Below are positions 7,593 through 63,099 of a stretch of DNA of 64,000 nt, in pieces. Under the pieces are notes generated by a model. The model was given only the letters and a program-made list of their open reading frames with translations. It was not told the origin of the DNA and did not search any database. Both the position numbers and the translations under genes were made by a program. Position 1 is the stretch's first letter. Each line of letters begins with the position of its first letter. The stretch is from Minisyncoccota bacterium. GTDB taxonomy: Bacteria > Patescibacteriota > Minisyncoccia > Phycocordibacterales > UBA9973. Location of the stretch: assembly GCA_043771685.1 (NCBI GenBank), contig JAYVGX010000034.1, forward strand, positions 11,690-75,689, written 5' to 3'.

Positions 7593-7854
7593 ATTTTGTG
7601 GAGAGAAATGTTAGCAAAAATCAGTCTTCAAGTTTAAAATACACACCACTTTACGTGTACAATTTTTAAACAGACTAATATTTTTCAAATTTCTTAACAT
7701 ATTTTTATTGTTACATAATGACTCAAACAAGTCAACGAATTTTCCACAAGTGTGTTTATTGTACCAAGCTCGAACCTATTTCCAAAATCGCTAATGTGCC
7801 ACTCGCGGAGCGCGTCCCACCTTCTGGCTTTGAAAAAGCCGTTGAGTTCTGTGT

Positions 7855-22231: not shown

Positions 22232-22576
22232 CTATATATTATTTATCTTTACTGCTACGATAAAGTCGTTTTGGGACAGGCCGTTGATAGCGTGGGTAGA
22301 TAAATTTATAGTTACAAATTTATAATTAGTTAAGTGTATGTCTGGATGATGACCTTCAGATTCGGCGATACAGCCAACTTTATTCGCAAAAGACAAACCT
22401 TCAACGAAATTTTTAAATTCAAACTTTTTAGAGATACTTTTGGCGTCGTCTGAAAGAATCCAGTCTTTGACGTGGAAATTTATCATCGCCTCGGCATCAG
22501 CCTTACTTAAAGGATCTACTCCGCCCTCGCACGGTATACATTTTTCATTTAATAAATTCATCCTACTATTATACAA
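22232..22576 (-). CDS. Pterin-4a-carbinolamine dehydratase (PCD/DCoH).
   Basis: Diagnostic E-x-HHPD motif (ESEGHHPDIHLTNY). 114 aa. Confidence 0.8.
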   Translation of the reverse strand: MYNSRMNLLNEKCIPCEGGVDPLSKADAEAMINFHVKDWILSDDAKSISKKFEFKNFVEGLSFANKVGCIAESEGHHPDIHLTNYKFVTINLSTHAINGLSQNDFIVAVKINNI

Positions 22577-27343: not shown

Positions 27344-28666
27344 TTAAAATATTTTTAATGTTAAAGAATTTAATTGAATTGTTTTTTGTTCTCGATTTTT
27401 CTGATTTTTCAGATTGACCGAATTGTTTTCTTGTTCAGTGGTGCCTACTACTATCGTATAATCATAGCCCAGTTTATCTGCATACGCAAATTGATCACCA
27501 AGTTTTGATTTACCACCAGTATACACCTCACAAACAAGTCCAAGACTGCGAACAATGTTTGCAACTTTGAAAGCATACGCATTTGCAATACTATCCTGAA
27601 TCAGAACTATTACTTTTTTAGTCTGATTTGGGATAATAAAATCCATTGATTGCAAGGCGGAAACCAATCGGTCTACTCCGACACTTGCACCCACTGCTGG
27701 CAATGCTCTCACTCCAAAGCTTTCTACTAGTCCATCATATCGTCCACCTGAATACACAGAACCGAATTGTGGTGCGTCTACTAGATTGGTTTCAAAAACC
27801 ATTCCAGTGTAGTAAGCAAGTCCACGGATAATAGACATGTCGAATTCTACTTCAGTTACTCCGCAAGCCTCAAGGGTATTTGCAACTGCTTGAAGATCAT
27901 TTATTGCTTCTTTTGCTTCTTGGATTTCTCCGCAAGAACTTTTGATTTTAGCCAAAACTTCAATAGGATTTCCAGTGGTAGCTCCAAAGTCAATGAGGGC
28001 AAGTGCAGAAGCTTCAGAAAGTCCAATTTGAACAAGAGATGCTAAAAGTAGATTAGTCGAAACCTTGTCGCGTTTATCAAGCTCTATTAAAACAGCACGA
28101 AGTTTATCATCTGCAAAACCAAAAAGTTTTGGTAAGCAGTCGAGCAATTTTCGGGTGTTTGTACGAATGATAAATTTACCATTACCTACAATAGCGTTCA
28201 TAGTGTCACACATACAAAGCAAGACTTCGATGTCACTTGCAATATTGGCAGAACCAACAATGTCTACATCAAATTGGTCAAATTGTCGATATCGCCCTCG
28301 CTCTATCTGAGCAGTTTCTCCGCGAAATACGGGTCCAAACACCGACCTTTTAAAGGGTAGTGCAAGCTCACTCATGTGGTCTACCACATAGCGCGCAAGT
28401 GGAACAGTCTGATCAAAACGAAGAGACAAACTTTGAGCTGTACCAGTCTTGCGCTCTTTCGAAGGCGAAACTGAATAGAGATTGAAGTCTGTAACTTCAC
28501 CAGAGAGAGTCTCAGTAAATTCTACGAGAGGTGTCTCAATAGGCAAAAAGCCGTATTTTTTATAAACACTTGCAATAGTATATACGAGCCAGTCTTTAAA
28601 GGCTGAATCTTTTGGTGATAAGTCTCGTAATCCGCTTGGAATTCCCATTGATTTTCTTTTTTTCAT
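27344..28666 (-). CDS. hisS: Histidine--tRNA ligase.
   Basis: Class II motifs (LRDLSPKD..., FRGETAQ, GGRYDGL) plus a C-terminal anticodon-binding domain. 440 aa. Confidence 0.85.
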   Translation of the reverse strand: MKKRKSMGIPSGLRDLSPKDSAFKDWLVYTIASVYKKYGFLPIETPLVEFTETLSGEVTDFNLYSVSPSKERKTGTAQSLSLRFDQTVPLARYVVDHMSELALPFKRSVFGPVFRGETAQIERGRYRQFDQFDVDIVGSANIASDIEVLLCMCDTMNAIVGNGKFIIRTNTRKLLDCLPKLFGFADDKLRAVLIELDKRDKVSTNLLLASLVQIGLSEASALALIDFGATTGNPIEVLAKIKSSCGEIQEAKEAINDLQAVANTLEACGVTEVEFDMSIIRGLAYYTGMVFETNLVDAPQFGSVYSGGRYDGLVESFGVRALPAVGASVGVDRLVSALQSMDFIIPNQTKKVIVLIQDSIANAYAFKVANIVRSLGLVCEVYTGGKSKLGDQFAYADKLGYDYTIVVGTTEQENNSVNLKNQKNREQKTIQLNSLTLKIF

Positions 28667-55670: not shown

Positions 55671-56208
55671 TGTTTATTTGTTGTAAAGTTTCTTCTAATT
55701 GTTGACGGATTTTTTCAAAATTTGGCAAGTCCTCGATACTAGACGCTCCCATAAAAGTAAGCGCTTCGATACTTGGTTTGTATAGAACCTTGCGACTATC
55801 AGTGCTGTCGATGTAACGTTCTATCAATCCACGGACAACGAGGTTACGCAATATAAAACCAGAATTAACTCCACGTATATAGTCTATCTCACTACGAGCA
55901 ACTCCATTTTTATACATAACAATAGACAAAGTTTCCAGAGCTGAACGAGTCAACTCTTTTGTAATTTCGTCTTTACGGATTGATTCGATAGTCGGTCCTA
56001 GTTCTTTAACTATACCCAGAACAACTTCGTCTTCGTGACGTACTAAAACCAAACCTCTGTTTTGTAAATTGTTTTCTAGAATCAATAAACTTTTTTCTAT
56101 CTCTTCTATTTCAACATTTAAAAGTTCCGCCAATTTTTTGATTTTGACATTTTCGCCTTTATAAAAAAGCAGGCCTTCTATTTTTTGTTCTAAAGTTATT
56201 TCATTCAT
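55663..56208 (-). CDS. scpB: Segregation and condensation protein B.
   Basis: Tandem winged-helix ScpB pattern (IEGLLFYKGENVKIKKLAELL...; LETLSIVMYKNGVARSEIDYIRGVNS). Confidence 0.8.
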   Translation of the reverse strand: MNEITLEQKIEGLLFYKGENVKIKKLAELLNVEIEEIEKSLLILENNLQNRGLVLVRHEDEVVLGIVKELGPTIESIRKDEITKELTRSALETLSIVMYKNGVARSEIDYIRGVNSGFILRNLVVRGLIERYIDSTDSRKVLYKPSIEALTFMGASSIEDLPNFEKIRQQLEETLQQINND

Positions 56209-56217
56209 ATTTTTGTG

Positions 56218-56295
56218 CTTGATAAGTAATATTAAAATTTTTTGTGTCTGGTGACTTACCCCGAGGACCGAAAAATTTTAATATTACTTATCAAG
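56218..56295. repeat. 25-bp perfect inverted repeat with a 28-nt GC-rich loop, exactly filling the scpA-scpB intergenic space.
   Basis: Left arm CTTGATAAGTAATATTAAAATTTTT (56218-56242), loop TTGTGTCTGGTGACTTACCCCGAGGACCG, right arm AAAAATTTTAATATTACTTATCAAG (56271-56295). The right arm overlaps the scpA stop codon. Confidence 0.8.
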
Positions 56296-57064
56296 ATAAT
56301 TCCTTTACAATTTCCTGCTTATTAATAGTAATGTCATCAAAAGAGTTATTCTGAACTACGTCTAGTATACCCTCACGTACCAATTCTAGCATAGCCAAGA
56401 AAGAAACGATAACGTGAACTTTTGCTTCAGCACTGTCGCGCGCACCAAAGCTTTTTGAAAAATCTTTGAAAGAAGTATTCATAGCACTCTGGATTCTTTC
56501 GGTTAAATTATTTATAACTTCATCTATATTTATAACTTTTTTTATTTCAATTTGAGGTAGTTGAACTTCTTTTTTAGGGGCGTTTTTAAGTACGTCTTCG
56601 ATCGAGATTGCAATTGTATTTACTGTCATTTGACTATCTGGAGAAAATATAGGCTCAGACCAAACACGATCAACAGGAGTAAATATTATTTGAGTACCGA
56701 AATTATTTTTAATTTCAACGCTTGCATTTTTAATTATCTGATAGAGCTTGAGTCTTTGTTCTAGATCAACTATCTTTTCTTTTTCATCATTTGTTAATTC
56801 TAAGTTAGGTAATAATGATTTAGATTTTATGAGTATCAGAGTCGCTGCAATTAAAACGAAATAAGATATATCGGCGATGCGTTTTTCTTGAGGAATATCA
56901 ACTAATTTCTTAACATACGATATATATTCTTCTGTGACTTGAGCAAGCGTTATGTCATTAACAAAAAGCTTGCGTGCCTCTACGAGACTCAGCAATAATT
57001 CCAACGGCCCTTCAAATGAAGGTTGTTTTATACTATATACCGAGATTTTTTCCTCTTCTTGCAT
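56291..57064 (-). CDS. scpA: Segregation and condensation protein A.
   Basis: FEGPLELLLSLVEARKLFVNDITLAQVTEEY: ScpA N-terminal signature. Confidence 0.8.
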   Translation of the reverse strand: MQEEEKISVYSIKQPSFEGPLELLLSLVEARKLFVNDITLAQVTEEYISYVKKLVDIPQEKRIADISYFVLIAATLILIKSKSLLPNLELTNDEKEKIVDLEQRLKLYQIIKNASVEIKNNFGTQIIFTPVDRVWSEPIFSPDSQMTVNTIAISIEDVLKNAPKKEVQLPQIEIKKVINIDEVINNLTERIQSAMNTSFKDFSKSFGARDSAEAKVHVIVSFLAMLELVREGILDVVQNNSFDDITINKQEIVKELS

Positions 57065-57095
57065 CTTTTGATTATAACAGGATAACGGTGGTATT

Positions 57096-57132
57096 CAAAA
57101 TAAAAAGCCTGGGACACATTTGTCTCAGGCTT
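57096..57132 (-). terminator. Hairpin terminator after the IMP-cyclohydrolase-like gene.
   Basis: AGCCTGGGACA..TGTCTCAGGCT stem flanked by A- and T-runs. Confidence 0.5.
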
Positions 57133-57149
57133 TTAGCGCTATGTAAACA

Positions 57150-57737
57150 TTATTCTATTTTATAAGTTCCTAAAACTGTATCGAAACTTAGCCCATCGAA
57201 AAAATTGGCAATATTAGCATCATACTCTGCTAGTACTTTAAAAGTATTTCTAGATCCTTCTAATCTCATATTTAAAGTAGAATAGCCATTTTGATAGCTC
57301 AATTTTGTAATAAATTTATCATAACCCTCTGCACTTGCTGTTGGTATAGTCATAACCTCTAGATAACGAGTAGCACCAGATTTTAAAGCAAAAGGACCAA
57401 GGACATCAATATGAATTCTACATTCTTCAATGGTAACACCTTCTTTTCTGACTAATTTATCAAATGGATATAGGTCCACTATAACCAAATCGATAGACGA
57501 TAAGCCGCCATCTGTTTCTGGTATACCAGTATATCCTGATACTAGTATAATTTTTCCATCCCGCACATCTAAAGGAAAATATATTTCAAGATGAGAATAA
57601 GTTCCTCCGCTTGAAAAAATAGTTACCTGGCGACAAATTTTAAATAGAGCATCCACCAGCATAACAATATTTTTTTTGTCATGCACATCAATAAATACAT
57701 TTTTAATATGCACGAGATTTTTTACCTCTCTAATCAT
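57150..57737 (-). CDS. Stand-alone MGS-like domain related to the PurH IMP-cyclohydrolase N-terminal domain.
   Basis: TIFSSGGTYSHL...VSGYTGIPETDGG...IDLVIVDLYPF resembles PurH IMPCH motifs (STGGTA..., TGFPE..DG, DLVVVNLYPF). 195 aa only; no AICAR-transformylase domain. Confidence 0.45.
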   Translation of the reverse strand: MIREVKNLVHIKNVFIDVHDKKNIVMLVDALFKICRQVTIFSSGGTYSHLEIYFPLDVRDGKIILVSGYTGIPETDGGLSSIDLVIVDLYPFDKLVRKEGVTIEECRIHIDVLGPFALKSGATRYLEVMTIPTASAEGYDKFITKLSYQNGYSTLNMRLEGSRNTFKVLAEYDANIANFFDGLSFDTVLGTYKIE

Positions 57738-57838
57738 AATTTATTTTATTTAATTTTTAGAAAATCAATTTAATTTATTGAAATACTACACTATTATAAT
57801 ATTTTGTAAAGAATAAAAGTTTTCCACAGTTTATATAG

Positions 57839-57876
57839 GTACTTTAGTTGACTAAAGTACTTTACTTTGCTAAAGT
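57839..57876. promoter_or_regulatory. Operator-like palindrome GTACTTTAGTTGACTAAAGTAC plus an adjacent half-palindrome ACTTTGCTAAAGT, upstream of and overlapping the yerC-like gene start.
   Basis: 10-2-10 inverted repeat at 57839-57860, closely resembling the E. coli TrpR operator GTACTAGTTAACTAGTAC. A second partial copy lies at 57864-57876. Confidence 0.55.
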
Positions 57877-57884
57877 GGTTATAT

Positions 57885-58244
57885 ATGAAATTTGATTGGG
57901 ATACAAAAGAAAATAAACAATTTTTAAATGCAATACTTTCACTTGAAAACAAGACTGAAGCCAAGTCTTTTCTTCGCGACCTCATGACCGAAGGCGAGAT
58001 AGTTGAATTTGGCAAAAGACTCGAGGCCGCTCGCCTACTCTCTAATGATACACAGTACGCTCTGATCATAGAGCGTACTGGTCTTTCCTCTACAACTATC
58101 GCCCGCATTTCTAAATGGCTCAGAGGCTCTCTTGGTGGTTACCGCATGATCCTTTCTCGTACCAACAATCTTAAAAATGAAATAAATAACAAGCATCATA
58201 ACAATCCTTCAAAAATTCAGAGAGGATTGCCTTTGACGCGTTAA
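57885..58244 (+). CDS. TrpR-like YerC/YecD family DNA-binding protein.
   Basis: GLSSTTIARISKWLRGSLGGY matches the YerC/YecD (Trp-repressor-related) HTH. The tracked ORF begins at an upstream TTG (57867); ATG 57885 is preferred. Confidence 0.65.
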   Translation: MKFDWDTKENKQFLNAILSLENKTEAKSFLRDLMTEGEIVEFGKRLEAARLLSNDTQYALIIERTGLSSTTIARISKWLRGSLGGYRMILSRTNNLKNEINNKHHNNPSKIQRGLPLTR

Positions 58245-58265
58245 TATTAAAACGTATTCGAATAT

Positions 58266-58297
58266 AACCCCTTCTGAATTTACAGAAGGGGTTTTTA
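58266..58297 (+). terminator. Rho-independent terminator after the yerC-like gene.
   Basis: CCCTTCTG-loop-CAGAAGGG followed by GTTTTT. Confidence 0.65.
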
Positions 58298-58322
58298 ATT
58301 ATTAAAATTAATTTAGAAAAAT

Positions 58323-58874
58323 ATGAAAACAAATAAAAAGTTACAAATAGCAATCATAGGTTCAGCTGGTAAAGACGACTATTTTGGAAATAATGGTGGT
58401 TCAGATAGTCTAATGGAAAAATTAGCAGAAGAAATAGGTTTTTTATTAGCACAAAAAAACATAATAGTTGTTACTGGTGGTAAAAGTGGAATTATGAATT
58501 TTGCCTCCTTGGGTGCTAAAAAAGGAGGTGGAACAACTATCGGCGTTATAAAGGGTAAAAACAGATTTACATCAAATGAATATACTGATGTTGAAGTAAT
58601 CTCTGGGATGGAAGCAGATGGTTTGGATGAAGTGCTTATTTCTTTTATGAGTGATGGATGCATCGTTATAGGTGGTGGAGCAGGTACGCTTCAAGAAGTA
58701 GCTTTGTTTTACAGAAACAACAAACCAATAGTAGTTTTAGGAGGAAGCGGTGCTTGGGCAGATAAATTAAGTGAAATAGATTTTTTAGATGAAAGGAAAA
58801 GAATAAAAATAATAACAGCTTTAAATGCAGAGGATTCTGTAGATAAAATAATAGAAAGTATAAATTTATGTTAA
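58323..58874 (+). CDS. LOG-family (TIGR00725/SLOG-type) Rossmann protein, predicted nucleotide N-glycosidase/nucleotide-binding.
   Basis: VTGGKSGIMNFASLGAKKGGGTTIGV and IGGGAGTLQEVAL correspond to the LOG GGGxGxM and PGGxGTxxE motifs. Confidence 0.7.
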   Translation: MKTNKKLQIAIIGSAGKDDYFGNNGGSDSLMEKLAEEIGFLLAQKNIIVVTGGKSGIMNFASLGAKKGGGTTIGVIKGKNRFTSNEYTDVEVISGMEADGLDEVLISFMSDGCIVIGGGAGTLQEVALFYRNNKPIVVLGGSGAWADKLSEIDFLDERKRIKIITALNAEDSVDKIIESINLC

Positions 58875-59011
58875 AAAATTATTTAAATAAAAATAATAAC
58901 CATAGTAACTCATTTTTCTTAAAAGAAATTGGGGTGTATTTAATATTTTAATGTAAATCAATTTCTTTTTGGAAAATCCAGAAAGTAATTGTACATTAAA
59001 AAATAAATAAA

Positions 59012-59704
59012 ATGGAATTTGAAAATCAAATATCAAATGCGGATCTAGTTTTAATTATTGATGAATCTCTTTCTAAAGAAGAAATAGACTATTTAGAAAA
59101 AATTGAAACAAAAAATGAAGGCATAATTAAATGTTTAGTTTTTGACAAAATGGTAAGTAAATTAGAAACATTACTTATATCTGACCTACTTTTACATAAC
59201 TTTAATCCAAAAAATACTTTGCTTGTTTATCCAGGAAATGGAGGTAAGGATATTATGGATAAGTTAGATTTAAGTTACACCCATCCTTCAACAAATGTAC
59301 CAGCAAAAAGATTGTGGCAACCAGGACAAGACCCTGTAGTTTGTACATGGGAAGTTTTACCAGAAAGACATATATTAACAAATATTGAAACTGTAGTAGT
59401 TATTGATGATGTTATAAGTTCTGGTAAAACAATAGAGCAATTGTATGTACGCAATATTTGGAAATTTCCAAAAGCAAAGTGGCATGCTTTATCTTTAGTC
59501 GGTAGACCCAAAAAAATAAAAGGATATGATTATCTGTATACCTTAAATTTAATTACAAATAGTAAATGCCCTGAGAAGAAAATTCCTATAAATTCAATAT
59601 CAACTTTTATAGAGGATAAGAAAATTTGTATAGATTATGCATTAAGAAATATTAAAAATCCTAATATTTTTATTGATTTTTTTGATTCTTTAAAAGACCA
59701 TTAA
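59012..59704 (+). CDS. Type I phosphoribosyltransferase-domain protein with a ~110-aa N-terminal extension.
   Basis: PRPP-binding loop VVVIDDVISSGKT. Confidence 0.6.
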   Translation: MEFENQISNADLVLIIDESLSKEEIDYLEKIETKNEGIIKCLVFDKMVSKLETLLISDLLLHNFNPKNTLLVYPGNGGKDIMDKLDLSYTHPSTNVPAKRLWQPGQDPVVCTWEVLPERHILTNIETVVVIDDVISSGKTIEQLYVRNIWKFPKAKWHALSLVGRPKKIKGYDYLYTLNLITNSKCPEKKIPINSISTFIEDKKICIDYALRNIKNPNIFIDFFDSLKDH

Positions 59705-59711
59705 CAAAAAA

Positions 59712-59750
59712 AATCCCTCTCAATATATTGAGAGGGATTTTATTATTTTT
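59712..59750 (+). terminator. Bidirectional rho-independent terminator.
   Basis: TCCCTCTCAAT-AT-ATTGAGAGGGA stem followed by TTTTATTATTTTTTT. Confidence 0.7.
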
Positions 59751-59760
59751 TTATAAAAAA

Positions 59761-59788
59761 TTAGTACTTTAGTTAACTAAAGTACTAA
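59761..59788. promoter_or_regulatory. Second copy of the TrpR-operator-like palindrome: a 28-bp perfect palindrome TTAGTACTTTAGTTAACTAAAGTACTAA.
   Basis: Core GTACTTTAGTTAACTAAAGTAC is identical to the 57839-57860 site except for the central dinucleotide. Confidence 0.5.
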
Positions 59789-59834
59789 GTAAAAAATAGC
59801 TGTATTTAAAATAAAGCAGGCTTGTCAAGTAGAA

Positions 59835-60287
59835 TTAAGCTTTTATTTTCAAAGCTAATTTAGCTAAAGTTTCATCATCGGCGCGTTTGTAGTCATGAGA
59901 GGAAATATAACCTTTGTATTGGTCAAAGTAGAGATCTGGACCACCACTGTGAATACGCCATTCTTCACCTTTTGTACCGTGCATTGGAAAAAGCTTGGCG
60001 TGGGCATGATTAACTCCAAAGCCTTCAAATATCATACCTGTACGTCCTACATCGTCTAGTTTATCGTCTAGTAACTTCCCTACTTTTTTAGCAACTATTA
60101 CTAAATCTGTTAATACTTTGTCGTCTAAATCAAAGGCGTAACTGTCATAATGTTTTTTGGGTATAACCACAGAAAAACCTTCGGTATTCGGAAAGATAGA
60201 AAGAAAAGCCAGATGATTTTCATCTTCGTATATTTTGTGGCTTGGCGCCTCCCCTTTTACAATTTTACAAAAAATGCAATCGTCCAT
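59835..60287 (-). CDS. HIT-family (histidine-triad) nucleotide hydrolase/transferase.
   Basis: N-terminus CIFCKIV...NHLAFLSIFPNTEGFSVVIPKKH and His-motif region GVNHAHAKLFP. Confidence 0.65.
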   Translation of the reverse strand: MDDCIFCKIVKGEAPSHKIYEDENHLAFLSIFPNTEGFSVVIPKKHYDSYAFDLDDKVLTDLVIVAKKVGKLLDDKLDDVGRTGMIFEGFGVNHAHAKLFPMHGTKGEEWRIHSGGPDLYFDQYKGYISSHDYKRADDETLAKLALKIKA

Positions 60288-60297
60288 AAAATTTAAA

Positions 60298-61686
60298 CTA
60301 TTTTTTGACTTGAATATTTAATTCTTGTAATTGAACATTTGTCATTGCACTCGGTGCTCCCATCATGAGATCACGCCCTTCACCTGTTTTTGGAAAAGCT
60401 ATAACTTCACGAATATTTGGTTCATTTTCTAGTAACATAACTATGCGATCTACTCCGACAGCACAACCACCGTGAGGAGGTGCACCGAACTCAAATGCAT
60501 GAAGCATATGTCCGAAACGAGCTTCAATCATTTCTTTTTCCATGCCTAGTATTTCAAATATTTTATTCTGTAAATCTCTTTGATGAATACGAATAGAACC
60601 ACCCCCGAGTTCATAACCGTTTAGCACTATGTCGTATGCATTCGCGCGCGCAGACAATGGGTCTGATTCTAGTAAATGTGCGTCCTCTGTTTTAGGAGAA
60701 GTAAATGGGTGATGAACTGCTTGGATGATACCATCTTTGGTTTTTTCAAACATAGGAAAGTCGACAACCCAACAGAAAGCAAGTAAATCTGGGTCTTCTT
60801 TATCATTACGTAAGTCTGGTTTCTCGTTGCCGTATTTTTCCATTGACTCAGCATAAGTTAAACGAGGGAAAGGAATCTCTTGGATTTTTTTATTTGGATA
60901 AACATTTTGCACCATTTCGATAAAAATCTTTTCTGTGTAAGCAATAATGTCTTCTTGTTCTATAAATGACATCTCGTAGTCAAGTTGTGTAAACTCTGGT
61001 TGGCGATCACCTCTTGTGTCTTCGTCACGCATACAACGAGCAATTTGAAAATACTTTTCGAAACCAGCAACCATCGCCAATTGTTTGAATTGTTGTGGTG
61101 ATTGAGGTAAGACATAGAAATTGCCAGGCTCGATACGTGAAGGTATAACATACTCACGAGAGCCTTCTGGTGTACCTTTTGTCATCATCGGTGTTTCGAT
61201 TTCGACAAAGTCACTGTCGTGCATGTAACTGCGGAAAAAAGTTATGATTTTATCACGCATACGGATATTTTTCTGTAGACGTTCTGAACGTAAATCCAAG
61301 TAACGGTATTTCATACGGATGTCTTCGCCAACTTCACGTGTATCAGTGTCTATTGGAAAAGGCATTGTTTCGGCTTTATTTAATACCTCTATCCCCGTTA
61401 TTTCCATCTCTATATCTCCATTGAGAACTCCTACTTTTATATTTCTTTCTGGGCGAGCATTTACTATGCCTGTGACTTTTAGCACCCACTCTGTGCGGAC
61501 TTCTTTAACTTGTTCTATTGCTTCCGTATGATTTGGAAGTACAACACCTTGAACCTTGCCAGTCATGTCGCGTATATCCATAAAAACCATCTTGCCTTGA
61601 TCGCGACGTACATCTACCCAACCACAAACAAAAACCTCTTCCCCAGCATGTTTATTCAAATCTTTAATATAAATTCTGTTTTTCAT
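60298..61686 (-). CDS. aspS: Aspartate--tRNA ligase, short archaeal/eukaryote-like type (462 aa).
   Basis: OB-fold N-domain, flipping-loop [11 protein letters not shown], motif 2 [24 protein letters not shown], motif 3 GGCAVGVDR. Confidence 0.85.
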
Positions 61687-61725
61687 AAAATATTTTTTAA
61701 CTCGCGATAATACGGAGTAAGTTAA

Positions 61726-61938
61726 TTAATGTACAAGTTTCCCTAAAATTTCACACGGCTGTCCTATAATAAAACATAAAACTACAAGTATCCAATAAAA
61801 AGGAGCGAATGCATAAAACAATATCGGGTCTTTGTGTCGCAACGGTATGTACCATGCATGAACTTTCATATAGAGCATACTCAAAGGAATATTGATGATA
61901 TTTAGTATTATTAATAAAATCGAAGCTATGTATTTCAT
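61726..61938 (-). CDS. Hypothetical small two-TM membrane protein (70 aa).
   Basis: ORF with two hydrophobic helices; no family recognised. Confidence 0.25.
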   Translation of the reverse strand: MKYIASILLIILNIINIPLSMLYMKVHAWYIPLRHKDPILFYAFAPFYWILVVLCFIIGQPCEILGKLVH

Positions 61939-61943
61939 ATATT

Positions 61944-62999
61944 TTAAAAATAATTAATTTTTAATGCTTCTCTTACTTGTAACATTGTTTTCTCTGCATG
62001 AATACGAGCTTGTTTTGTACCATCTTCTAAAATTCTCATAACAGCATCTTTGTCTTTCTCTAATTCTTGTCTTTTATTACGAATCGGAGAAATAATATTT
62101 TCTAAAACTTCTATTAATCTCTTTTTGATCACAACATCACCGAGACCGCCTTTTTTATAATCTTGTTTCAACTTTTCTATCTCTTCTTTATTTTCATCAA
62201 AAATATCTAAATAAGTAAATACAACGTTGCCTTCAACTCTCCCAGGGTCATCTACATGAATATGATTTGGATCAGTGTACATAGACATAACTTTATCTTT
62301 TATTTCTTCATAACTATCTGAAAGATAAATGGCATTGTTTAGGGACTTACTCATTTTAGCATTACCATCAACTCCTACGAGACGTGGCGTATCACCAACG
62401 ACACCATTTATTTTTGGAAAAATATTTACATTATATATAGAGTTAAATTTCTTTACTATATCGTTTGCTTGTTCTATCACAGGCATCTGGTCTATCCCTA
62501 CTGGTACAGTGTTGGCACAACAGAACAAAATATCGGCAGCTTGCGAAATTGGATAATTTAAAAATCCCATAGGTATTCCTTTTTCAATACTATCTTCACT
62601 TTCATTTTCTTCTAAACGAGAATTTAAATTGAACCCTTTTTCCTTTGCTTCTGTTTTAATAGTCGGATTATGAGAGAGCTGTTGTAGAGTAACCAAGTTC
62701 ATGAATAGAACTGTCAGTTCTGCAATTTGTGGAACTTCACTTTGGATAAACATCGTAGTTTTTTTAGGATCAACACCACAAGCCAGATTATCGAGTACTA
62801 CTTCCAAAACATTGTCACGGATTTTTTGTGGGTTATTGGCATTGTCAGTGAGTCCTTGGATGTCAGCGATCATATAAAAAGATTTTGAAGCTTGATCTTG
62901 AAGTTTGATACGGTTACCGATTGAACCAACAAAATGACCCAAGTGGAGCCTGCCAGTTGGTCTGTCGCCTGTTAATACTATAGTTTCTTGATTTGACAT
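61944..62999 (-). CDS. trpS: Tryptophan--tRNA ligase.
   Basis: LTGDRPTGRLHLGHFVGS (HIGH-type), KMSKS (AKMSKSLNN); size and spacing fit TrpRS rather than TyrRS. The start is chosen at MSNQE. Confidence 0.7.
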   Translation of the reverse strand: MSNQETIVLTGDRPTGRLHLGHFVGSIGNRIKLQDQASKSFYMIADIQGLTDNANNPQKIRDNVLEVVLDNLACGVDPKKTTMFIQSEVPQIAELTVLFMNLVTLQQLSHNPTIKTEAKEKGFNLNSRLEENESEDSIEKGIPMGFLNYPISQAADILFCCANTVPVGIDQMPVIEQANDIVKKFNSIYNVNIFPKINGVVGDTPRLVGVDGNAKMSKSLNNAIYLSDSYEEIKDKVMSMYTDPNHIHVDDPGRVEGNVVFTYLDIFDENKEEIEKLKQDYKKGGLGDVVIKKRLIEVLENIISPIRNKRQELEKDKDAVMRILEDGTKQARIHAEKTMLQVREALKINYF

Positions 63000-63099
63000 A
63001 CTTTTATAATACCAAAAAATTAGACTTTTGCACATATTACCAACAGTTTTGTCCTCTTTGCAATATAGGCAATATTTTTCTACGTGCTACAATAAAAAA

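Follow-up and report, generated by a model that had tools for sequence, protein, structure and literature searches.

The HisR regulon is the closest described counterpart of the locus reported here. Ashniev et al. 2022 (PMC9413887) identified YerC of Bacillus subtilis as the TrpR-family histidine repressor HisR. The consensus operator of HisR, cacTTTAnnnnnnTAAAgtg (cacTTTA-N6-TAAAgtg), is found in Firmicutes, Actinobacteria and Synergistetes, and L-histidine was needed for the binding of HisR to DNA in an in vitro assay (PMC9413887). In about half of the genomes a site lies 5′ of hisR, which points to autoregulation, and HisR2 paralogs have been redirected to tyrosine and tyramine genes (PMC9413887). 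The text of this paper, the sole relevant one found in our literature search on YerC/HisR, makes no mention of Patescibacteria. Here we describe a yerC locus from that group, on a 64,000-nt stretch (hereafter the window) of contig JAYVGX010000034.1, positions 11,690 to 75,689 of the forward strand, from the Minisyncoccota bacterium assembly GCA_043771685.1. The yerC gene is followed by genes for a SLOG protein and a phosphoribosyltransferase (PRTase)-like protein, together called the cassette. Palindromic sites lie at the yerC promoter (operators A and B) and beyond the cassette (site 2). We regard it as probable, with some room for doubt, that this is a HisR-type YerC locus of Paceibacteria, members of the candidate phyla radiation (CPR), which is autorepressed through a promoter-operator composed of A and B and is accompanied by the SLOG–PRTase pair and site 2.

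A preliminary description of this DNA, made from the sequence alone, had noted palindromes on both sides of the cassette. Both are present, and they are the only such sites in the 64 kb. Operator A, GTACTTTAGTTGACTAAAGTAC, is symmetric in 21 of its 22 bp; site 2, GTACTTTAGTTAACTAAAGTAC, is a perfect 22-bp palindrome that can be extended to 28 bp. A scan of the window at up to three mismatches gave matches at the places of operator A and site 2 only, and the chance expectation for matches to the 22-bp palindrome, taken from 100 dinucleotide-preserving shuffles, was 0.00. A degenerate third copy, operator B, overlaps A. Its core is ACTTTACTTTGCTAAAGT (57859–57876); written as a 20-nt site, TACTTTACTTTGCTAAAGTG, it carries three mismatches and is offset from A by 18 bp. 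The operators of the window are exclusively at the yerC locus, and a genome collection search found the exact palindrome restricted to the yerC locus also in a related metagenome-assembled genome, GFS_3870.

Operator A and site 2 both contain ACTTTA-N6-TAAAGT, the operator consensus of HisR/YerC. Their layout, GTACT-TT-AGTTAACT-AA-AGTAC, is that of the E. coli trp operator (trpO) with 2 bp inserted in each half. The sites had been described as almost trpO. The likeness is real, but the register is off: the half-sites lie 4 bp further apart than in trpO (GTACTAGTTAACTAGTAC), and the motif is the HisR/YerC operator. The encoded protein belongs to the same class. It matches Trp_repressor (PF01371) with E = 7e-16 and passes TIGR02531 (yecD_yerC), with 59.9 bits against a cut-off of 42.2, but fails the TrpR equivalog TIGR01321, with 17.4 bits against a cut-off of 67.25. 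The closest solved proteins are 3FRW, 3G1C and 3KOR (E about 1e-12), and 3G1C is counted as HisR in PMC9413887. The C-terminal tail of the window protein, HHHN-x-SKL-x-KGLSL (58185–58244), is common to YerC of the Paceibacteria type and is not seen in the solved HisR-like structures.

The promoter scan identifies a predicted −35 element, TTGACT (57848–57853), followed by a 17-nt spacer and a predicted −10 element, TAAAGT (57871–57876), with a TG upstream. The −35 element is the middle of palindrome A, and the extended −10 element (TGcTAAAGT) is the right half of B. The yerC ATG is at 57885, only 8 nt after the −10 element, so the yerC transcript is probably leaderless or nearly so. We propose that a YerC dimer on each of A and B would occlude the promoter, by which yerC would repress its own leaderless transcript.

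The arrangement is conserved. Loci for comparison (L numbers) were collected partly by a metagenome scan for TACTTTAGTNNACTAAAGTA, which gave at least 120 loci, and partly by retrieval with the protein; among the matches listed, yerC adjoins the site in about one third of the scan loci. Every distinct yerC upstream region in the collection (41 of 41) has a site at up to two mismatches. Eight of these regions were chosen independently of the operator site, and the shuffled background of such sites is 0.0004 per kb. In the yerC loci fetched by protein identity (L134–L137, L142, L143), A lies at −43 to −46 and B at −25 to −28 from the start codon. Alignment of ten upstream regions, nine from yerC (orthologs 61–75% identical) and one from a Cys-rich gene, reveals an invariant or near-invariant block of 38 bp, ACTTTA(C/G)TTGACTAAAGTA(C/A)TTTA(C/G)TTTG(C/A)TAAAGT, surrounded by unconserved sequence. 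The exact 22-mer is also found 5′ of a YerC of 47% identity on a contig with a GC content of 0.50 (L012). Shorter YerC proteins of 95–104 residues have one site only, which abuts the start codon. Loss of the palindrome upstream of yerC orthologs was thus not found. Its presence there decisively favors the proposed pairing of the repressor with this operator, and the coverage of the predicted −35 and −10 elements agrees with the autoregulation that had been suggested.

On other metagenomic contigs the same type of repressor stands at the head of histidine genes. In L120, hisG-hisD is preceded by a YerC of the Paceibacteria type that has this tail and the A+B operator; in L093 and L066 a shorter YerC stands before hisG-hisS. 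The order is yerC-SLOG-hisG in L105 and yerC-hisG in L019, and L133 has a site that coincides in part with the promoter of a histidyl-tRNA synthetase (HisRS) gene. Because the same YerC type and operator head hisG clusters, and because the motif is identical to the one published for HisR, the YerC of the window is most likely to be read as a HisR ortholog, with histidine or a close relative as the likeliest co-repressor. Aminopeptidase genes are repeatedly located directly 5′ of yerC, encoding Peptidase_M17 in L134/L135 and aminopeptidase N in L105, L063, L089, L062 and others; these neighbors are consistent with a theme of amino-acid supply in these auxotrophs.

Compared with the HisR regulon (PMC9413887), the locus shares the protein family, the 20-bp core and the site 5′ of the regulator's own gene, as well as the hisG-hisD and hisG-hisS clusters headed by YerC of the window type in relatives. 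It differs in several respects. No histidine biosynthesis genes are under the operator in this region. The A+B tandem is fixed and is itself the predicted leaderless promoter. SLOG and PRTase genes or other strain-specific cargo lie downstream, together with a solitary distal site. The helix proposed to bind the effector has other residues, and the C-terminal His-rich tail is conserved. The core is thus the known class of HisR/YerC repressor and operator, now in a new phylum and with an unusually clear promoter-operator architecture. What goes beyond the described systems, as far as sequence comparison can tell, is the yerC-SLOG-PRTase linkage, the strain-level cargo exchange beside yerC and the solitary distal operator.

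The likeness to E. coli TrpR is of a more general kind, comprising PF01371, a palindromic operator overlapping the promoter, and autoregulation. Tandem operator occupancy is a TrpR feature and resembles the A+B layout. The outer GTAC and the central TAGTTAACTA of the sites are identical to trpO, in the consensus quoted by the preliminary description. In contrast to the E. coli system, no trp genes are found under the site, the TrpR equivalog model fails and the half-sites are wider apart. The features of the locus are listed in Table 1.

Table 1. Positions of the features of the yerC locus in the window
Feature	Position	Strand	Remarks
Stand-alone PurH IMP-cyclohydrolase-domain gene	57150..57737	-	divergent flank
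Operator A	57839..57860	.	22-bp palindrome; center TTGACT is the predicted −35
yerC promoter, predicted sigma-70-type	57848..57876	+	from promoter scan; spacing kept in orthologs
Operator B	57858..57877	.	degenerate; predicted extended −10 (TGcTAAAGT) in right half
yerC, YerC/YecD (HisR-type) TrpR-family repressor, 119 aa	57885..58244	+	conserved C-terminal HH-N-x-SK-x-x-GL tail
yerC intrinsic terminator, GC-rich	58266..58298	+	left edge of variable segment
Strain-variable cargo segment, GC 0.27	58298..59757	+	swapped in L002, L003, L008
SLOG cluster-4 (LDcluster4/TIGR00725-like) protein gene	58323..58874	+	GGxGTxxE present; LOG catalytic Arg absent
Type I PRTase-fold protein gene, small family	59012..59704	+	phosphoribosyl pyrophosphate (PRPP) loop VVVIDDVISSGKT
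Bidirectional GC-rich intrinsic terminator	59710..59741	.	cassette end
Site 2	59761..59788	.	solitary palindrome, core 59764–59785; right edge of variable segment; minus strand terminator-like
HIT-family gene	59835..60287	-	E=3e-11; convergent flank outside variable segment

The gene after yerC had been taken to encode a LOG-family nucleotide N-glycosidase. Its product belongs to the SLOG superfamily, scoring 103.8 bits with PF18306 (cut-off 26.3, E = 9e-30), and has in common with the LOG phosphoribohydrolases and the molybdenum cofactor (Moco) carrier a Rossmann-like SLOG fold and the GGxGTxxE and TGGxxGxM motifs. However, it is a cluster-4 member, and the LOG models remain below their cut-offs (PF03641, 21.6 versus 27; NF058542, 32 versus 300). 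In the alignment with YvdD, GMEADG is opposite GMHERK; the Glu motif is kept, yet the Arg of the LOG motif MHERK is absent, so the LOG label and the assignment as an N-glycosidase are too strong. Among solved proteins it comes closest to TM1055 (1RCU), 6Y01 and 2IZ5 (Moco carrier), with E-values of 1e-19 to 1e-15, and the solved LOG proteins match at 1e-7 to 1e-5. In the literature collection searched, no paper mentioned LDcluster4 or SLOG cluster 4.

The last gene of the cassette was said to encode a phosphoribosyltransferase-domain protein. Matches to the Pfam PRTase models are all sub-threshold, and the call is borne out by the PRPP loop and the predicted fold. The loop VVVIDDVISSGKT is invariant in the family, in which VPAKR and VVIDDVISSGKT are also conserved. 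The AlphaFold (AF2) model, with a mean confidence (pLDDT) of 79.6, supports a type I PRTase fold; its top Foldseek matches are purine PRTases (probability 1.00, TM-score about 0.5). A word-indexed search gave three clusters of homologs at 32–37% identity and one at 96%, and a profile search gave about 250 representatives. Several members of the family are fused to HAD phosphatases, in either domain order. We also considered whether SLOG and PRTase domains are fused to each other; the long members of the family carry HAD phosphatases and not SLOG. No kinship was detectable between the PRTase of the window and the PRTase-like proteins of about 300 residues in L031 and L033.

The two genes keep company elsewhere, also with yerC. 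Two distant PRTase homologs (34–37% identity) were examined, and both are encoded directly after a SLOG LDcluster4 gene. In L138/L139, yerC is directly upstream under a single operator, and one base separates the yerC stop from the SLOG start. The grouping of yerC, SLOG and PRTase, pointed out earlier for the window, is therefore a recurrent triad, present in three lineages (window, L071 and L039/L138). In 6 of 34 loci the gene next to yerC on the downstream side encodes SLOG. The partner of SLOG differs by lineage and is the type I PRTase, a PRTase-like protein of about 300 residues with a DDVIFSG motif and no Pfam match, or HisG. Genes for an AstE-family deacylase and a PfkB kinase are sometimes found alongside these pairs. 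From such contexts we take SLOG and PRTase to be a conserved functional pair, which probably makes or handles a phosphoribosylated small molecule. Ter-associated pathways for nucleoside-like metabolites, which combine a PRTase with a HAD phosphatase, are reportedly known from work of the Aravind group. The PRTase family of the window weakly matches PRTase_2 and PRTase-CE and has members fused to HAD; unlike those systems, no HAD, ATP-grasp or Ter genes are found here, the partner is SLOG, and the pair lies behind a HisR-type repressor gene.

A SLOG–PRTase pair also occurs without yerC or an operator (L140, 4900–5120). There the pair is preceded by a consensus promoter and then a leader that runs for about 150 nt up to a GC-rich terminator and looks like an undescribed attenuator or riboswitch. 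In Rfam searches neither positions 56000–62000 of the window nor the L140 SLOG leader reached a gathering score; no riboswitch thus explains the cassette.

The cassette occupies a slot that is exchanged between strains. An identical YerC protein is encoded on glacier-fed-stream metagenome contigs L002, L003 and L008, where a methyltransferase and a pterin-dependent hydroxylase (Biopterin_H) replace SLOG and PRTase. By blastn, the alternative-cargo strain is about 93% identical through yerC and its terminator up to 58302. There is zero homology across the cargo, and the identity resumes at 59758, 6 bp before site 2. Since homology ends just past the yerC terminator, the terminator marks the left edge of the slot. 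Both cargos have a GC content of 0.27–0.29, compared with 0.37–0.39 for the flanking core genes; the value for the organism is 0.34. Across Paceibacteria the genes after yerC are also varied, encoding nitroreductase, radical SAM, aromatic ammonia-lyase with CN-hydrolase, DUF6282 and small open reading frames. The flanking genes named in the preliminary description, for an IMP-cyclohydrolase domain and a HIT protein, are called correctly. In one lineage of Paceibacteria (L031, L136, L137, L143, L144) variable cargo, different in each of the five loci, lies between yerC and a conserved gene for an XerC/D-like tyrosine recombinase, followed by Exo_endo_phos.

Site 2 stands alone. It has no partner B site and no nearby start codon, and is not at a promoter. 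As described before, it is located beyond the cassette terminator and between convergent genes, 50 bp past the HIT stop codon. Its minus strand scans as an intrinsic terminator, with a 12-bp stem, a 4-nt loop and then TTTTTTAT, at −13.1 kcal/mol (z = −3 to −4.7 versus shuffles). In the alternative-cargo strain the site is kept at 21 of 22 positions, and the adjacent intergenic DNA has diverged with indels; this junction was read from blastn and directly, as MAFFT misplaces the palindrome of L002. Distal sites after the cargo of yerC are also found in L031 and L020, and that of L105 is the A+B promoter of the next gene. From these comparisons we conclude that site 2 is a true copy of the operator, kept by selection. 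It may serve as an auxiliary or insulating operator or as a terminator, or may be a relic of a lost promoter module. In the mechanism we propose, SLOG and PRTase would be expressed with yerC, either by transcription that runs on past the terminator or from a weak promoter belonging to the pair, and site 2 would bind YerC as an auxiliary or insulating operator while also forming the hairpin terminator of the convergent transcript of aspartyl-tRNA synthetase (AspRS) and HIT.

Several observations weigh against this mechanism. The stretch proposed to contact the effector in HisR reads FFEDvCTiNE in Firmicutes and FLRDLMTEGE in the YerC of the window; with these helix residues different, it is gene context alone that points to histidine. 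The window contains no histidine biosynthesis gene, and neither its HisRS gene (27362–28660, minus strand) nor its pterin-4a-carbinolamine dehydratase (PCD) gene (22241–22570, minus strand) has a site at up to four mismatches. The promoter scan gives SLOG a plausible separate promoter, which lies within the terminator of yerC and has no operator, so the control of SLOG by YerC in this genome would be indirect at best. That palindromes bracket the cassette, as first described, is not a property of the triad: the L138/L139 triad has no distal site, and no site at up to four mismatches lies downstream of yerC in the sequence examined of seven other loci fetched by protein (L134–L137, L142–L144). 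Among the matches listed, a T-run occurs at 18 of 89 solitary sites, and some of the solitary metagenome sites may be chance matches. At that frequency of T-runs a general role as terminators is not established, and the idea that solitary sites are generally terminators was not convincing; the T-run test is in addition falsely positive for tandem sites, in which site B starts T-rich. Beside these points, the PCD and HisRS families do adjoin operator sites in other genomes.

The hairpin formed by site 2 raises the question whether the site is merely an intrinsic terminator, serving AspRS-HIT here and the cargo in the alternative strain, which was copied from the operator and has no regulatory role, leaving the site upstream of yerC as the sole operator. 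We consider this possible though doubtful. Besides the terminator call itself, the Biopterin_H stop codon in L002 is 6 nt before site 2, a T-run comes after the site, and the short gap shows no further hairpin. The distal solitary sites of L031 and L087 have GC-extended stems followed by U-runs (−18.5 and −20.2 kcal/mol), and the stem can be extended by at least 2 bp at 29 of 89 solitary but at 2 of 29 tandem sites, among the matches listed. However, a strong bidirectional terminator is only 20 nt beyond site 2, which makes a further terminator redundant here, and solitary sites show no clear excess of T-runs. The hairpins of L002 and L020 are weak (−8.6 and −7.1 kcal/mol) and not significant versus shuffles. 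Moreover, a terminator does not need 21/22 identity to the operator, yet this is kept across strains while the flanks drift. The position of the site at the edge of the slot also brings to mind recombination or cassette-boundary sites, integron attC-like or Xer-like, that drive the cargo exchange. The cargo is low in GC, it differs between strains whose flanks share about 93% identity, the right breakpoint is 6 bp from site 2, and elsewhere the variable slot neighbors a tyrosine recombinase gene. But the left breakpoint coincides with the terminator of yerC and not with a palindrome, and tblastn of the window with the L031 recombinase, CysRich570, HisG, AstE and PepN found no homolog, with PCD and HisRS being the only ones detected. 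Because the left junction is off the palindrome and no homolog of the L031 recombinase turned up in the window, site-specific recombination is very unlikely; in addition, yerC is as conserved as the flanks, the slots beside a recombinase mostly have no distal site, and the motif follows yerC promoters across phyla.

Two further alternatives concern the ligand and the cargo. The repressor might sense tryptophan or another aromatic amino acid, as TrpR does, instead of histidine. The parts of the site shared with trpO would fit this, as would a tryptophanyl-tRNA synthetase (TrpRS) gene 2 kb away, the aromatic-amino-acid hydroxylase in the alternative cargo, the PCD gene adjoining yerC in 10 loci among the matches listed, the aromatic ammonia-lyase cargo of L144 and the precedent of HisR2 paralogs retargeted to tyrosine and tyramine genes (PMC9413887). 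We think it distinctly unlikely, given the failing TrpR equivalog, the spacing that is 4 bp off trpO, the TrpRS gene without a nearby site and the same YerC type heading hisG-hisD and hisG-hisS. The cassette had also been likened to nucleotide-centered conflict systems. SLOG and PRTase domains do occur in conflict systems, and the cargo is strain-variable and low in GC. PADLOC returned weak local matches to PsyrA (E = 5e-5), PRTase_III-A (E = 4e-4) and a ThsC-like HIT (E = 2e-3), but these span just 27–80 residues with marginal scores, so the defense reading was dropped. An anti-phage module regulated by YerC is most improbable, as there is no effector, sensor or nuclease partner present, the HAD phosphatase fusions of the PRTase family are a metabolic pattern, and the genes linked elsewhere encode HisG, AstE-family deacylase and PfkB kinase.

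We also put forward, tentatively and as a rather unlikely extension, that in Paceibacteria the HisR-type operator is a portable module with two uses. The A+B form would be a leaderless promoter-operator, and the lone form with an extended stem would be a terminator or insulator. Both would delimit a cargo slot after yerC, placing whatever it holds under one amino-acid-sensing repressor, possibly by a loop that joins the promoter sites to the distal site. A+B would be reused before yerC, before each of the Cys-rich array genes of about 570 residues, and before other cargo. The low-GC cargo of the slot would then include SLOG with PRTase, methyltransferase with pterin hydroxylase, aromatic ammonia-lyase, radical SAM and nitroreductase. 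SLOG with PRTase or with HisG would in that case represent an undescribed histidine-regulated pathway of phosphoribosylated metabolites in organisms lacking histidine biosynthesis.

The presumably autorepressed HisR-type locus has a bearing on the CPR, in which transcriptional regulation is almost unstudied and culture is not possible. It provides a repressor and an operator suited to in vitro tests, with a promoter delineated by sequence conservation and a plausible effector. A SLOG–PRTase or SLOG–HisG pair would be retained under a histidine-type repressor in reduced genomes. Should the distal site prove functional, a TrpR-family repressor would here have a remote auxiliary operator, which is rare. 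Otherwise the repressor would be of the ordinary autoregulated kind, and the hairpin would just duplicate its operator.

The motif has a second recurrent target in tandem arrays of genes for Cys-rich proteins of about 560–600 residues with no Pfam match (L115, L119, L041, L099, L068, L037, L107). The array genes are separated by the operator, with 2–12 bp left to the flanking stop and start codons. The array sites are at positions 3140 in L115, 1688 in L119, 3459 in L041, 886 in L099 and 4816 in L068, and in L115 a complete A+B module precedes the start codon of a Cys-rich gene. In L033 (5497–6319), seven copies of the operator surround one yerC, five upstream and two between yerC and SLOG. 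Four of the five upstream copies form two pairs with a distance of 143 bp in each, as if a unit had been duplicated. Between convergent genes of L094 (about 7610–7690), the operator is centered in an inverted repeat that spans about 60 bp, has no more than one mismatch and may be a long hairpin or the end of a mobile element.

Two observations concern the neighboring genes of the window. The PurH-domain gene encodes 195 residues, of which only about 89–195 match PurH, compared with 228 residues and a match over 4–201 in the relative L009. The difference includes a net deletion of about 90 bp (about 30 codons, probably in frame) at about 57496–57501, and the protein of the window may be impaired. 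The TrpRS (61944–63035, minus strand) has only 35–40% protein identity to its positional counterparts in the close relatives L002, L003 and L010, and the DNA is non-homologous, while the regions around it (AspRS, DnaB) are 91–99% identical in these contigs. This looks like a precise replacement by a distant TrpRS.

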